From positions 37,407 through 101,406 of the forward strand of contig MFCS01000025.1 in NCBI GenBank assembly GCA_001776975.1: a stretch of DNA of 64,000 nt, in the 5' to 3' direction. How positions within the stretch are numbered: the first letter of the stretch is position 1; each line of letters begins with the position of its first letter. Both the position numbers and the translations under genes were made by a program. The notes below the pieces were generated by a model. It saw nothing but the letters and a program-made list of their open reading frames with translations, was not told where the DNA came from and did no database searches. The DNA comes from Candidatus Daviesbacteria bacterium RIFCSPHIGHO2_01_FULL_41_45 (GTDB lineage: Bacteria > Patescibacteriota > Microgenomatia > Daviesbacterales > UBA10151). Of the stretch, positions 51,130 to 57,799 are shown piece by piece.

Positions 51130-51426
51130 ATGAAAAAGATATCTTTAATCATTAATGAAACTAAATTTAAAGACAGACCTAAAAACTTATCCCAGGAGTT
51201 TCAAGTTTATGGAATATATCTGGCTGAGACTCTGGCAGACACCAAGCATTATTCACTTTATATCAAGCTAGCTAAACACTACGAAAGAAGCCTTTTGGAG
51301 CAAGCCTTAAACTTTGTTAAAGATGCCAATAAGGTTAAATCCCGAGGACGATTATTTATGTGGAAACTAAAGAATCTGAAAGATTCGCAAGGAACTACCC
51401 AAGACACTATAAAAAAAACAGATTAA
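51130..51426 (+). CDS. Hypothetical protein (98 aa)
   Basis: ORF only. Starts 5 nt after the upstream gene. Confidence 0.4.
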   Translation: MKKISLIINETKFKDRPKNLSQEFQVYGIYLAETLADTKHYSLYIKLAKHYERSLLEQALNFVKDANKVKSRGRLFMWKLKNLKDSQGTTQDTIKKTD

Positions 51427-51828: not shown

Positions 51829-52389
51829 TTGCCCGTTTACCTAGCTTTGGGTAAAATACCAGATATGGAGATTGTTAAAGCACCCGATGCCAGATTAAGG
51901 GTAAAAACAAAACAGGTTAAAAAAATTACCCCGGAACTTTTAAAAACCATTAAAGAGATGGTGCTATTAACCAAGTCCTTTGCTGATCCAGAAGGAGTGG
52001 GCTTGGCAGCAACTCAAATAGGAAACGGGGGACAATATTTTGTTAGTAAAACTAAGTCCGGGTCTTTTAGATCCGTCATTAATCCTGCAATTTTGAACTT
52101 CTCCAAAAAGACTAAAGTATTTTTTGAAGGTTGTTTGTCTATTCCAGATTACTACGGTGAGGTAAAACGTCCCATCGGAGTTACTGTTTTGTATCTTGAT
52201 GAGAAAGGTCAAAAAATTAAAAAGAAATTAACCGGACTGGAAGCGTGGATATTTCAACATGAATATGATCACCTGCAGGGCAAATTGTTTGTGGATTATG
52301 TTTTAGCACAAAAATCCCGGTTGTACAAAGTAGTAGGTAAGGATAAAACCGGAGCCGAGGTTTTTGAAGAGGTGTCTCTGGAGATATGA
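51829..52389 (+). CDS. def: Peptide deformylase
   Basis: GVGLAATQIG, EGCLSIPD, QHEYDHLQG. The real start is possibly the internal ATG near 51865. Confidence 0.93.
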   Translation: MPVYLALGKIPDMEIVKAPDARLRVKTKQVKKITPELLKTIKEMVLLTKSFADPEGVGLAATQIGNGGQYFVSKTKSGSFRSVINPAILNFSKKTKVFFEGCLSIPDYYGEVKRPIGVTVLYLDEKGQKIKKKLTGLEAWIFQHEYDHLQGKLFVDYVLAQKSRLYKVVGKDKTGAEVFEEVSLEI

Positions 52390-53213
52390 GAATCATATTT
52401 TTTGGCACTCCAGATTATGTCGTCCCGATCGTGAACGCCCTTCATAAACATTTCTCTATAGTGGCAGTTGTTACTCAACCCCCTCGACCTGTGGGTAGAA
52501 AGCAGGTCGTTACTCCATCCCCTGTCTCAGAGTGGGCAGAAAAGAATCAGATCCCGATTTTCGACAAGAAACCCGAACAGATTATTGATGAATTAAAGAA
52601 ATTAAAAGCTGACGTAGGGATCTTAGAATCTTATGGGGAAATTTTATCCTCAGAGTTAATTACATTATTTCCTCATGGGATAATTAATATTCACCCTTCA
52701 TTATTACCTAAATATCGAGGGTCCTCTCCAAATCAGGCAGTATTACTAAACGGAGACAGTGCCACAGGTATCACAGCGATTAAACTTGACTCTGAGATGG
52801 ACCATGGTCCTATACTCTTCCAAGTAGAAAAGTCAGTTTATCAGAACGATACTTTTAAAGCACTCCGAGAAAGACTCTTCGCTGACTCTGCAATCACACT
52901 CCTCGAAATATTACCCCAATATATTGCTGGAGAGATTAAACTTAGACCCCAAGATGACAAAAAGTCCACTTATACCTGGAAAACAGATCAGACAAAAGCT
53001 AAGGCCTACTTTGATATTAATAACCCCCCATCAGTTGAGGTATTAGATCGGATGAGCCGAGCTTTTTATCCCTGGCCTAATGCTTGGACAAAGTGGAACG
53101 GTAAGATTGTTAAATTGTTACCTGAAAAAAAAGTTCAGATCGAGGGTAAAAAACCAGTTTCCTTAGAAGAATTTTTGAGAGGCTATCCGGATTTTCCGAT
53201 CAAGGCACTTTAA
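52386..53213 (+). CDS. fmt: Methionyl-tRNA formyltransferase (short form)
   Basis: IIFFGTPDYVVPI, HPSLLPKYRGSSP. Overlaps def by 4 nt. Confidence 0.9.
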   Translation: MRIIFFGTPDYVVPIVNALHKHFSIVAVVTQPPRPVGRKQVVTPSPVSEWAEKNQIPIFDKKPEQIIDELKKLKADVGILESYGEILSSELITLFPHGIINIHPSLLPKYRGSSPNQAVLLNGDSATGITAIKLDSEMDHGPILFQVEKSVYQNDTFKALRERLFADSAITLLEILPQYIAGEIKLRPQDDKKSTYTWKTDQTKAKAYFDINNPPSVEVLDRMSRAFYPWPNAWTKWNGKIVKLLPEKKVQIEGKKPVSLEEFLRGYPDFPIKAL

Positions 53214-53461: not shown

Positions 53462-54853
53462 CTAGTTTAAGGCGCAATATTGCAAATTGCCTCTGTAAGC
53501 ATCTCTTCGCAAAACCGCGGTTGGCAGATAATCAAATAATAAAACGGCAGCAGCAAAATCAATAAACGGATCGCCTCTAACTACCTGACGATTTAAATTA
53601 ACAATCCTACCTCTTAAAAAATCATACCTATCACCTCTAGTTCTTGATTCATATTCCCTAATTCCACTATATCTACCTAGTTCATTTAATCTAGTATGAG
53701 CATAGACTAGGTAGGTCGGCAAGTGCGGGCTAAGTAGAAAATCCCTCCAGGAATGAGCCTCTTCATCTCTACCTTTTTCAATTAAAATACTAAAATCAAC
53801 TCCTCTGGCAAACGATTGAGTGACGTTGTCCGGACTACCTCCAGGCATATCAGCAACCACTAAATTATTAAACACCCTGGCTTTATTTAAATCTGTCACA
53901 CCTCTCGCTATTAATTGATCATTCCATCTTAGATTTGGGTTTCTGATAACTGGTTGTGGGCGAACTATTGATTCAATTGTTGGTGAAACTAAGTCTAAAT
54001 CAACTACACATACCTCTATATCATTCGGGTTAAATATTCCATCGCTGGCACAGTGGTAAATTAAATCTTTGGCAGATGATACGAGTGAGGCTGCAGTTGT
54101 ACTCTTGCCGGAATGGGGTGACCCACCAACAACCATCACAAATCTCTGACCTTTAAGTAGCTTACTTTTACCCCGATCTAATGCAAAGATAGCTTTTTCA
54201 TAACTATTACCTCCATCATCAAGAGTTTTAATTCTGGGGACTGTAAAATCAGTTGGGATATGTTCCAATCTGGGGTACCTAACTGGTTTCCGTAAATTAT
54301 CTCTGCTCTGACTATTATTTAATTCAACAGGAAATTGCATGATAGATCTTAAAAAATTATCGGAGGGAAGTGAATATAGGCTACCTAGAACTTGGCTTGC
54401 ATCTACATATCCAGCAGATGGAATGCCAAAATTAGCTAAAAGTTGTCTAGCTAATAATTTTGAGAGATACCCATGCTCTGGCTTGAGATTTGGTAGGGAA
54501 CGGATTCTCCACCACTCATCTTCCCTCAACCTACGGAACGGCTCCAAGGCCAAGGTTATCTGTCTTAAAGATGCTCTATCTTGTCTAGACAAGGGGCTTT
54601 CTTTAATTATCCCTTCCAATACTCCCGGATTAAGATAATCTATCTCTATATTACCCTCTCCAGTTTTAAATAACGGAATGGCCTCAGCTAATAATCCCCT
54701 GCTAACTCTTTTATCAGCTCGAATAACTAGCTCAGCCTGTGGGGCAATTACTCCTAATTTTTCCAAAACAAATCCGGCGATAACAGCAGAAGGGCTAAGC
54801 TCATCTAAAATTAAAACTTTATTAAAAGGGCCGGGAAACTTTCTTTCTTCCAT
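53462..54853 (-). CDS. Uncharacterized P-loop NTPase (463 aa)
   Basis: Walker A VVGGSPHSGKSTTAASL. Probable Walker B VCVVDLDLV. No further family-level match. Confidence 0.55.
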   Translation of the reverse strand: MEERKFPGPFNKVLILDELSPSAVIAGFVLEKLGVIAPQAELVIRADKRVSRGLLAEAIPLFKTGEGNIEIDYLNPGVLEGIIKESPLSRQDRASLRQITLALEPFRRLREDEWWRIRSLPNLKPEHGYLSKLLARQLLANFGIPSAGYVDASQVLGSLYSLPSDNFLRSIMQFPVELNNSQSRDNLRKPVRYPRLEHIPTDFTVPRIKTLDDGGNSYEKAIFALDRGKSKLLKGQRFVMVVGGSPHSGKSTTAASLVSSAKDLIYHCASDGIFNPNDIEVCVVDLDLVSPTIESIVRPQPVIRNPNLRWNDQLIARGVTDLNKARVFNNLVVADMPGGSPDNVTQSFARGVDFSILIEKGRDEEAHSWRDFLLSPHLPTYLVYAHTRLNELGRYSGIREYESRTRGDRYDFLRGRIVNLNRQVVRGDPFIDFAAAVLLFDYLPTAVLRRDAYRGNLQYCALN

Positions 54854-54890
54854 AATTCCGGGCAGAACGGTGCTTATTATAGGGCATTAG

Positions 54891-55619
54891 TTACACTAAA
54901 TCAAACTCAGACTCAATCTCCAGGAGCTGTTGTTTACGTAATACCAGATCAGAGTTGCTATCAATTATCTTTTTTGCCTCCATTAAGTGTAGTTTTGCTT
55001 TTTCTGGATTGTCACTTTTTAACATCTTGGCTAGCCTTAAGTGAGCTCCCGAGAGCCATACGTCTTTGTTATATCTTGATAACTCAACTGATTCTTCTAA
55101 ATCCCTTAAGGCTTCCTCAGCCTGTCCTATCGCTGATTTATCACCTGTCAGATACTCTGCAGCAAATTGGTGTCCTACAAAATCAGCTATCACTGCCGGC
55201 CGATTGTGTCTTTCTGGTGGTGAGGACTTTATATACTCAACAGCCATTTTAAAAGCCTTAGCTGCTTCTTTATATTCTCCAGCTTCACTATAGTACTTTC
55301 CTAAATTATGATACGGGATTGCCAAAGACTCGCTCACTCCACTCATTTTGGCCACCTCAACTGAACTCAAAACAGCGTGTTTTGCCAAAACCAAAAATTC
55401 TGGCTTTTTGGTAGCTTGATAAAGATGCTTAAAAGTAGCAAACCGAGATGATTGAATCTCAGCCAACCCCAATAAATCACCGTCCTCACTATAAGCAATA
55501 GTAGCCTGGTCACAATATTCTAAAGCCTGCTGAAACTGTCCAGACTCTTTAGCCACCTCAGCTTTAGAGTGTAGCTCACGACCTTTTTTAGACGTTACCA
55601 TAATTGGATTATACATCAT
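54891..55619 (-). CDS. TPR-repeat protein
   Basis: Repeated helical A/Y/L/K-rich modules. Confidence 0.6.
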   Translation of the reverse strand: MMYNPIMVTSKKGRELHSKAEVAKESGQFQQALEYCDQATIAYSEDGDLLGLAEIQSSRFATFKHLYQATKKPEFLVLAKHAVLSSVEVAKMSGVSESLAIPYHNLGKYYSEAGEYKEAAKAFKMAVEYIKSSPPERHNRPAVIADFVGHQFAAEYLTGDKSAIGQAEEALRDLEESVELSRYNKDVWLSGAHLRLAKMLKSDNPEKAKLHLMEAKKIIDSNSDLVLRKQQLLEIESEFDLV

Positions 55620-56668: not shown

Positions 56669-56742
56669 GCCGAGATAGCTCAGTTGGCTAGAGCGCCACT
56701 TTTGTAAAGTGGATGTCCGGGGTTCGAATCCCCGTCTCGGCT
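56669..56742 (+). tRNA. tRNA-Thr (anticodon UGU)
   Basis: Manual cloverleaf: acceptor GCCGAGA/TCTCGGC, D-arm GCTC..GAGC, anticodon stem CCACT/AGTGG with loop TTTGTAA, T-arm CGGGG-TTCGAAT-CCCCG. Confidence 0.85.
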
Positions 56743-56808
56743 CTCAGAGCGTTGCATACCTATTGTGGGTGGAACCAAGCATAAAGTTTGATAGAATTCA
56801 CTAACTAC

Positions 56809-56880
56809 GCCGAAGTGGCTCAGTGGTAGAGCACGTTCTTGGTAAGAACGGGGTCACGGGTCCGATTCCCGTCTTCGGCT
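56809..56880 (+). tRNA. tRNA-Thr (anticodon GGU), CCA encoded at 56881-56883
   Basis: Acceptor GCCGAAG/CTTCGGC, anticodon stem CGTTC/GAACG with loop TTGGTAA, T-loop TCCGATT. Confidence 0.85.
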
Positions 56881-56907
56881 CCATGTTGCTCTTTGTGTCC
56901 TTTGGAA

Positions 56908-57115: not shown

Positions 57116-57670
57116 ATGTCTGAGATCCCAGATCCTTTAACTGGTCCTTCTACAGAACAGGTAAATCCTTCAACCGATAATCCCCGAGAATTTATGGATA
57201 AATTTTATGAGAGTAATATTTATCTTAAAGCTAAACAAGACTTTTTTATAGACAAAACCTTACCTGACGATGTAACTGATAAAGAAAAACAGGAGGCATT
57301 TGAACAAAGTGAAGATGCCAAGTTTGCTATGGTAGATTTTGCCAGAAAAGCATTAACATTCAAATATAATCCCGACTTATTTCCAGCTCCTTCAGCACAC
57401 GCACTTAGTACATACATTGAGAGTGTGAAAGATATGATGAAGATGTCCAGATCTGGTGTCAGCAGTACTGAAATAGAAAGCTTGGATTCACTAAGATCTA
57501 TTTATCACAATACAGCCGCTCAGACTCTGGTTGAGGACAAAGTTGTACGGTCTATCAAACTAGGCAGATCTCTTGCTAGATTGGTATTAGTTGATAAGGG
57601 TCTGGATACATTCGAGAATGCCACTAAAAAAGATATTGATCAAATCAAACGCAAGTTTGGAGCAGTATAG
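57116..57670 (+). CDS. Hypothetical acidic protein (184 aa) coupled to rpmG
   Basis: The ATG sits 1 nt after the rpmG stop (TAAAATG). No recognisable domain. Confidence 0.5.
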   Translation: MSEIPDPLTGPSTEQVNPSTDNPREFMDKFYESNIYLKAKQDFFIDKTLPDDVTDKEKQEAFEQSEDAKFAMVDFARKALTFKYNPDLFPAPSAHALSTYIESVKDMMKMSRSGVSSTEIESLDSLRSIYHNTAAQTLVEDKVVRSIKLGRSLARLVLVDKGLDTFENATKKDIDQIKRKFGAV

Positions 57671-57726: not shown

Positions 57727-57797
57727 AGGCCTGTCGTTCAATGGTAGGACAGCGGTCTCCAAAACCACTAACGAGGGTTCGATTCCTTCCAGGCCTG
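57727..57797 (+). tRNA. tRNA-Trp (anticodon CCA)
   Basis: Acceptor AGGCCTG/CAGGCCT, anticodon stem GCGGT/ACCAC (one C-A mismatch) with loop CTCCAAA, T-arm GAGGG-TTCGATT-CCTTC. Confidence 0.75.
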
Positions 57798-57799
57798 CA
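57783..57799 (+). repeat. 17-bp direct repeat, copy 1 (the 3' end of tRNA-Trp)
   Basis: ttccttccaggcctgca, identical to 57938-57954. Confidence 0.8.

Follow-up and report, generated by a model that had tools for sequence, protein, structure and literature searches.

We describe a 463-residue protein encoded in a 64,000-nucleotide stretch of DNA (hereafter the window) from Candidatus Daviesbacteria bacterium RIFCSPHIGHO2_01_FULL_41_45 (contig MFCS01000025.1). The gene, which is complete with its stop codon (53462..54853, minus strand), is supported by the list of open reading frames (ORFs), an exact-sequence look-up, homologues and an AlphaFold model. Its product is a member of a small uncharacterised family found in groundwater bacteria of the Candidate Phyla Radiation (CPR) and in some archaea, and its nucleoside triphosphatase (NTPase) module is already catalogued in a CRISPR/defence library. 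We favour the view that the protein is an intact, probably ATP-using NTPase of the SIMIBI class, made up of an N-terminal domain of ~235 residues and a module of ~230 residues, whose likeliest chemistry would be to transfer phosphate from ATP to a nucleotide or RNA-type substrate or else to handle that substrate in an ATP-gated way; we give this explanation an even chance of being right.

The initial annotation, made from the sequence alone, had called the protein an orphan without a family-level match. The second part holds for Pfam, NCBIfam, PHROGs and the PDB sequences, where both the single protein and its profiles gave only sub-threshold matches centred on the P-loop. A word-indexed search for homologues returned no more than two to five relatives, also when given a profile; one run yielded just an identical protein and another with 48% identity. 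The protein is nevertheless not an orphan: an exhaustive HMMER search of the representatives of 50%-identity clusters, using a two-sequence profile, recovered 135 cluster representatives, 85 of them at E<1e-10 and 28 at E<1e-30. About 28 aligned over nearly their full length and about 100 over the C-terminal ~240 residues only. The Walker A motif is central (~205-260) in almost all homologues, whose lengths range from 405 to 515 residues, bearing out the earlier picture of an uncharacterised P-loop NTPase with an unusually placed Walker A. The N-terminal regions of distant members are homologous to that of the window protein (hhalign 98.2%, E 2.9e-14, 178 columns), so that the family can be defined by its two-domain architecture.

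Conservation and library matches were counted over 113 family members, and here too the protein proved to have relatives. The PADLOC model PDLC01515 ('Csx3', CAS-I/III associated) matches 108 of them (best E 4.5e-15), PDLC01045 ('Csx3-AAA') 94 and PDLC01059 ('AAA-Csx3') 39. Of PDLC01515, all 183 profile positions are covered by these matches; of PDLC01045, the coverage is limited to positions ~104-286; positions 1-100 of the latter, the Csx3 part, were never matched by family members. Since only this C-terminal portion is covered, the matches lie in the NTPase half and not in the Csx3 half. The proposal of a novel GTPase or ATPase thus stands as far as 'uncharacterised' goes, while 'novel' was an overstatement for a module already profiled as half of Csx3-AAA.

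The NTPase domain occupies residues 237-463 (53465..54145, minus strand) and is homologous to stand-alone archaeal proteins of ~185 residues and to the C-terminal half of a Csx3-AAA protein, Slr7080. On the same strand, it contains a Walker A motif or P-loop, VVGGSPHSGKST (residues 241-252; 54098..54133), with G244, G249, K250 and S251 near-invariant; a Walker A' or switch I motif, VCVVDLDLVSPT (residues 281-292; 53978..54013), with D287 present in 112 and P291 in 102 of the 113 members; and a Walker B or switch II motif, LVVADMPGGSPD (residues 331-342; 53828..53863), with D335, P337 and G339 near-invariant. The VCVVDLDLV stretch singled out in the initial annotation corresponds to residues 281-289, and its position and that of Walker A were confirmed, as was the ORF itself. 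The near-invariant set, which includes D287 and P291, is completed by W310, W369, S396, G415, R422, D428, L438 and P444. The ~150 C-terminal residues first thought to lack recognisable motifs belong to a single NTPase domain running from ~237 to the end, whose landmarks include Walker B and W310, W369, S396, G415, R422, D428 and P444.

The SIMIBI combination of a Walker A motif GxxxxGK[ST] following strand 1 and an Asp-containing switch I following strand 2, here G244-x4-G249-K250-S251 with D287, is kept in at least 110 of the 113 members, and the nucleotide- and Mg-binding motifs are intact. The switch I motif of ParA, MinD and Mrp reads hhhhDxDxxxPs and the Walker B motif of Mrp/NBP35 reads DMPPGTGD; the 'VVDLDLVSPT' and 'VVADMPGGSPD' of the window protein resemble them, respectively. 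Neither an NKxD-type guanine motif (G4) nor a Gly-Pro-Asn loop is conserved in the family alignments, the former making a GTPase unlikely. A GPN-loop GTPase was rejected on both counts, the Pfam family ATP_bind_1 being reached only below threshold and by two homologues.

An AlphaFold2 model built on a 24-sequence alignment of the subfamily was confident (mean predicted local distance difference test score, pLDDT, 89.6; predicted template modelling score, pTM, 0.89). Its structural neighbours, with their scores, are MinD (14.7), ApbC/Mrp (13.7), ParA (13.1), a HypB-type Mrp (12.9), FleN (12.9), NifH (12.1), BioD (11.9), Get3 (11.9), SRP/FtsY (~10.5), GPN-loop proteins (~10.3) and kinases such as PSTK and Kti12 (9.7 and 8.9), and a stand-alone archaeal homologue passes the gathering score of Pfam CbiA (CobQ/CobB/MinD/ParA). 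The modelled fold is that of the SIMIBI class, nearest to the MinD/NifH/BioD/SRP/Get3 type, and not that of TRAFAC proteins, kinases or ASCE/AAA+ proteins. SIMIBI features had been named in the initial annotation as something to look for. For the window protein, the label of AAA+ ATPase that the literature attaches to the Csx3-fused domain was rejected, as the top 60 structural neighbours include no AAA+ protein; AAA+ ATPases are marked by an ASCE core with sensor 1, an arginine finger and a helical lid at the C-terminus. No well-characterised family turned up that matched the protein clearly and shared a conserved context.

The structural neighbours favour the main rival to our explanation, a MinD/ParA/Mrp-like switch that would homodimerise in an ATP-driven manner while its N-terminal domain recruits or positions a partner (for example in assembling or localising a complex or a metallocentre), with no phosphotransfer. 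Deviant Walker A motifs (xKGGxxGK[ST]) are, however, recognised by a signature lysine that reaches across the dimer and defines the ATP-sandwich dimers of this clade, and this lysine is absent family-wide; position 2 of the P-loop is Pro (68/113) or Ser, and the window protein reads GGSPHSGKST. Membership of the deviant-Walker-A MinD/ParA group was rejected for this reason. There are also no Cys motifs for handling Fe-S clusters or metals, and no amphipathic membrane-targeting tail is evident. We consider such a switch a real but minority possibility.

The remainder of the protein is specific to the family. Residues 1-195 (54269..54853, minus strand) form a beta-alpha-beta unit (10-60) and an eight-helix bundle (76-188), and are followed by a conserved beta-hairpin and short helix (residues 196-236; 54146..54268, minus strand; P206, K209, D216, L233) leading into the P-loop strand. 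K209 is invariant within the close subfamily. When residues 1-236 were modelled alone, the pLDDT was 84.8. No convincing structural relative of the N-terminal domain emerged, and no catalytic-looking acidic or His cluster is conserved in it, the only conserved polar residues being N75, R107, K209, D216 and D226.

The domains to which the module is fused bear on its likely substrate. A few distant members have an N-terminal HD domain, as in the 697-residue HD fusion P0031. Another rare architecture, that of P0101, joins the module to a class II tRNA nucleotidyltransferase, of which the body/tail region is present (3wfo, E 1.6e-9). P0107 was grouped with P0101 (565-571 residues) because the two are alike in length and in where Walker A lies; the NCBIfam CCA models match three family members that are not specified (E 2.5e-19). 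Every identified fusion partner (Csx3, the HD phosphohydrolase and the tRNA nucleotidyltransferase body) acts on nucleotides or RNA, Csx3 being a phosphodiesterase of cyclic tetra-adenylate (cA4). That these are nucleotide and RNA enzymes, and not cytoskeletal or partition proteins, also weighs against the dimerising switch. Clp1-type RNA kinases are SIMIBI enzymes, and it is because of this and of the fusion partners that we favour a nucleotide or RNA-type substrate. On this view, the nucleotide would be ATP rather than GTP, with K250 and S251 binding its phosphates and Mg, and D287 and D335 positioning Mg and water. W310, W369, R416, R422 and D428, together with the N-terminal domain, may bind the substrate or a partner. 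ATP would then drive phosphotransfer to, or gate the handling of, a nucleotide or RNA-type substrate, in a Clp1-like logic.

The homology to Csx3-AAA raises the question of a link to CRISPR. The window module is homologous to Slr7080, the Csx3-AAA protein of Synechocystis (sequence from NC_005230; hhalign 99.9%, E 4e-33; family hidden Markov model E 9.8e-14). It should be noted that the N-terminus of Slr7080 does not match the Pfam Csx3 model at E<=0.01; its identity was set through PADLOC and the literature. The function of the NTPase half of the Csx3-AAA proteins, labelled 'AAA' or 'kinase-transferase', is unexplained (PMC7371418, PMC12409355). Because it is homologous to the window module, this 'AAA' domain should be SIMIBI-like rather than AAA+. 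That the window protein itself is a genuine type III CRISPR accessory of the Csx3-AAA kind, responding to cyclic oligoadenylate, would be in keeping with this homology, but it has no Csx3 domain, there is no CRISPR array in the 64-kb window, and the gene tables read for the relatives' loci contain no annotated cas genes. The 48 window ORFs matched 65 PADLOC families, and the 25 listed of these include no Cas10, Csm or Cmr, the matches being of generic helicase and DprA type. An accessory role in the Daviesbacteria genome was rejected on the basis of the missing Csx3 domain, array and cas genes at the loci examined, and we rate the idea as extremely unlikely. PADLOC models for ShosA/PsyrA (E 1.6e-68 and 1.6e-39), PsyrT (E 4.4e-19) and DpdF/BrxH/Cas3-type helicases were matched by one or two of the 48 large window ORFs; the probable explanation is housekeeping genes of the DprA-like and SF2 helicase kinds, with a Shosta/Psyr-type defence pair as the less likely alternative.

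We looked for relatives in other genomes. A scan of GTDB with N-terminal peptide patterns found none, and a scan with a Walker A pattern found 13 loci. The relatives include proteins of 437-439 residues in Candidatus Berkelbacteria and one of 478 residues in a metagenome-assembled genome (MAG) labelled Gammaproteobacteria, along with P-loop-only proteins of ~185 residues in many Bathyarchaeia and one Thermoplasmata MAG. The distribution among metagenome contigs was the same, and the viral contigs scanned yielded no relatives. Three of the archaeal stand-alone modules (L014:7995-8549, L020:7977-8546, L023:5742-6299) are each overlapped by a convergent conserved gene of ~205-220 codons (L014:8546-9172, L020:8543-9160 and L023:6296-6958, all minus strand), an arrangement seen every time. 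The product of this neighbour has no Pfam match and contains '...GGNSSV.YLPKEYF.PGEK...'; it is possibly AbrB/SpoVT-like, and the two-gene unit may be conserved. The Berkelbacteria homologues (L011:5914-7233, L012:7599-8912) lie just upstream of dnaG and rpoD, with no Fic gene or rpmB nearby; the linkage to translation genes described below is therefore specific to the Daviesbacteria-like subfamily.

Gene neighbourhoods were compared for 11 distinct close-subfamily proteins with downstream sequence. A Fic gene comes directly after the NTPase gene (2-30 nt away, or overlapping it) in seven of these, and the distant L013 shows the same arrangement; the orthologous Fic genes are at L001:1975-2703, L008:1923-2654, L009:2420-3187, L073:2438-3139, L074:2630-3259, L076:1573-2361, L077:1448-1669 and L013:8880-9437. 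Pairwise identity among the NTPase-linked Fic proteins is 46-60%; HPFxDGNGRxxR is present in every one of them, and all but one have an N-terminal SxxxEG auto-inhibition motif (class II-like). The most consistently linked neighbour is rpmB, which encodes ribosomal protein L28. Of the seven relatives whose sequence extends far enough upstream, five have it there in the same orientation, in L003 at a distance of only 12 nt, and in the window it lies immediately downstream of the NTPase gene; overall, it is adjacent or within ~1 kb in six of eight informative loci, all from one CPR lineage. The fmt-def pair is convergent downstream wherever the contig extends, L073 being the sole exception. We take the window gene to be a vertically inherited chromosomal gene set among translation genes (rpmB, fmt, def) and, judging by the loci examined, to have no part in CRISPR.

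The support for the ribosome-assembly role suggested at the outset is contextual; nothing supports the cell-envelope assembly role suggested with it. In such a scheme, the protein would be a ribosome-associated NTPase whose target is the large subunit or L28, either while the ribosome assembles or in the control of translation, and Fic would be a modifier directed at translation. Translation factors are among the known targets of Fic/Doc enzymes. The linkage to rpmB, with fmt-def next door, and weak RbgA and Der profile matches around the P-loop (E ~3e-4) point in this direction. Those matches do not extend beyond the P-loop and a little flanking sequence, however; the known ribosome-assembly GTPases are TRAFAC proteins, whereas the window protein is SIMIBI and has no G4 motif; and the synteny comes from one lineage, the Berkelbacteria homologues lying by dnaG-rpoD and the archaeal ones elsewhere. 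Identification as a TRAFAC ribosome-assembly GTPase (Era, Der, RbgA or Obg), whose G1-G5 motifs include [NT]KxD, was rejected on the grounds of the absent G4 motif, the SIMIBI fold and a Der/RbgA similarity limited to the P-loop. We think a ribosome-associated role unlikely.

The frequent Fic neighbour also invites the explanation that the NTPase is half of a Fic-based toxin/regulator or defence module, serving as sensor, antidote or target, the window copy then being a remnant that has lost its Fic. Fic abuts or overlaps in most of the close relatives, as seen above; relatives of the module act as CRISPR accessories, and the module is profiled in a defence library alone. Against this, an antitoxin is superfluous for these Fic proteins, which have an SxxxEG inhibitory helix of their own, the locus keeps its synteny among housekeeping genes on the chromosome, and scanning viral contigs uncovered no viral or mobile relatives. 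There is no Fic gene in the whole window, and the window NTPase keeps all of its catalytic residues; the same is true of the other Fic-less copies (P0003, P0004, L024), which argues for an independent function. We regard a Fic-based module of this type as quite improbable.

Returning to the nucleotide- or RNA-directed NTPase that we favour, the auto-inhibited Fic AMP-transferase, translationally coupled downstream in most close relatives, would probably regulate the NTPase or be regulated by it, and the window copy would work without it. A bolder reading is a hitherto unrecognised arrangement in CPR bacteria, in which NTPase and Fic form a regulatory unit linked to the ribosome: the NTPase, as the free-standing counterpart of the Csx3-AAA module, would act on the ends of RNA or oligonucleotides, or on the large subunit that contains L28, and Fic would AMPylate switch I (conserved S/T-P-T, residues 290-292); this proposal is speculative, and we would not expect it to be correct.

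As for the gene itself, an exact-sequence look-up identified the protein as OGE25801.1 / UniRef100_A0A1F5MJK7 of Candidatus Daviesbacteria ('hypothetical protein' / 'Uncharacterized protein'). Its local G+C content (0.39-0.40) is that of the remainder of the window. A public ENA gene call, P0001 (L002:1667-2971), represents an identical protein of 434 residues that starts at an internal TTG (residue 30). The ATG start of the 463-residue form is supported in preference, because residues 6-29 are kept in homologues and are confidently modelled as the first strand and helix. Truncated calls of this kind end up representing clusters in a large protein database, and P0001 drops a conserved, confidently folded strand. 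A sigma-70-like match, TTGATT-17-TATAAT (54876..54904, minus strand), lies 23 nt upstream of the ATG; this match to the promoter consensus suggests that the gene may be transcribed on its own.

Both neighbours named in the initial annotation were confirmed. Upstream, a 242-residue TPR protein (54891..55619, minus strand; Pfam TPR_12, E 2e-12) is encoded in the same direction, 37 nt away; relatives do not share this neighbour as a conserved feature. Downstream lies a divergent, rpmB-like gene for a 70-residue L28 (53210..53422, minus strand) with CxxC...CxxC. This short protein is not matched by Pfam Ribosomal_L28 even at E<=1; the rpmB label is correct because it is 42% identical (E 6e-14) to an intermediate homologue of 90 residues that passes Ribosomal_L28 (E 2e-10). 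Its cysteines are of the zinc-ribbon type, it has a GSSGGGG insert, and the 3' end of its gene overlaps the stop codon of the convergent fmt by 4 nt. The methionyl-tRNA formyltransferase of the window (52386-53213, plus strand) is short, at 275 residues, and public records differ on its start (250 vs. 275 residues); in relatives, the Formyl_trans_C domain of this enzyme is matched weakly or not at all. Between a Wzy_C-TPR gene and def is a 98-residue ORF (51130-51426, plus strand) with no Pfam match, 58% identical to an 88-residue ORF at the same position in L071 and thus a conserved small protein. Further along, just past an M50 peptidase gene, are two tRNA-Thr genes (TGT, GGT) and one tRNA-Trp gene (56669-56883 and 57727-57798, plus strand), and between these tRNA genes is a 184-residue ORF with no family match (57116-57670).

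We see the protein as a new architectural variant in a known class and not as a new kind of system, useful to research on both Csx3-AAA and CPR. A structural class, SIMIBI (MinD/Mrp-like) and not AAA+, can now be proposed for the functionally unexplained 'AAA' domain of Csx3-AAA, and the family of this module is widened to stand-alone archaeal and two-domain CPR forms unrelated to CRISPR, which leaves fewer hypotheses for the CRISPR accessory. The string rpmB - NTPase - Fic is conserved in a CPR group, and its function is probably important for these bacteria, since reduced CPR genomes keep few non-essential genes. If the pairing of NTPase, Fic and ribosome is true, it would represent a new translation-control or RNA-repair circuit, and would show the role of the Csx3-fused domain in type III signalling, for example in phosphorylating the 5'-OH products of cA4 cleavage.

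Several known systems can be set beside the window protein. MinD, ParA and Mrp (ApbC, NBP35) share only 12-17% identity with it; it differs from them in having neither the signature lysine nor the Mrp cysteine motifs, and in having an extra N-terminal domain and a long C-terminal helix. The GPN-loop GTPases Npa3/GPN1 and PAB0955 (Pfam ATP_bind_1) are listed among the nearest known systems, but their GPN and NKxD motifs are not conserved in the window family. For the N-terminal domain, a comparison was made with the DHH/DHHA1 phosphoesterases and their inactive relative Cdc45, whose Mn/Mg-binding motifs DxD / D / DHH / D are not conserved in it; Foldseek (TM<=0.19) and the sequence profile gave no match, and the resemblance may not reflect homology. 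The polynucleotide 5'-kinases Clp1, Grc3 and Nol9, which belong to the SIMIBI class, share with the window protein a G..N.GKST-type P-loop and downstream conserved aromatic and Arg residues that could be clasp- or lid-like. The sequence matches between Clp1/Grc3 and the family are weak and at the level of the P-loop only (E 0.02-0.03); the functional logic of these kinases fits the RNA-processing fusion partners of the NTPase module. A further close system is Csx3-AAA, or Csx3' (Slr7080; clusters 35 and 67 of Shah et al. 2019; PADLOC PDLC01045, PDLC01515 and PDLC01059). It has in common with the window family an NTPase module of ~190-230 residues with a GGxPxSGKS Walker A, a K..W motif, a DxPG Walker B, a Trp after strand 4 and a G..L.R motif near the C-terminus. 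Where Csx3-AAA has a Csx3/Crn3 ring-nuclease domain, the window protein has an unrelated N-terminal domain of ~235 residues; and while Csx3-AAA is cyanobacterial and found in type III CRISPR loci, the window family belongs to CPR bacteria and archaea, with no CRISPR context at the loci examined and, in relatives, with Fic and rpmB as its partners.
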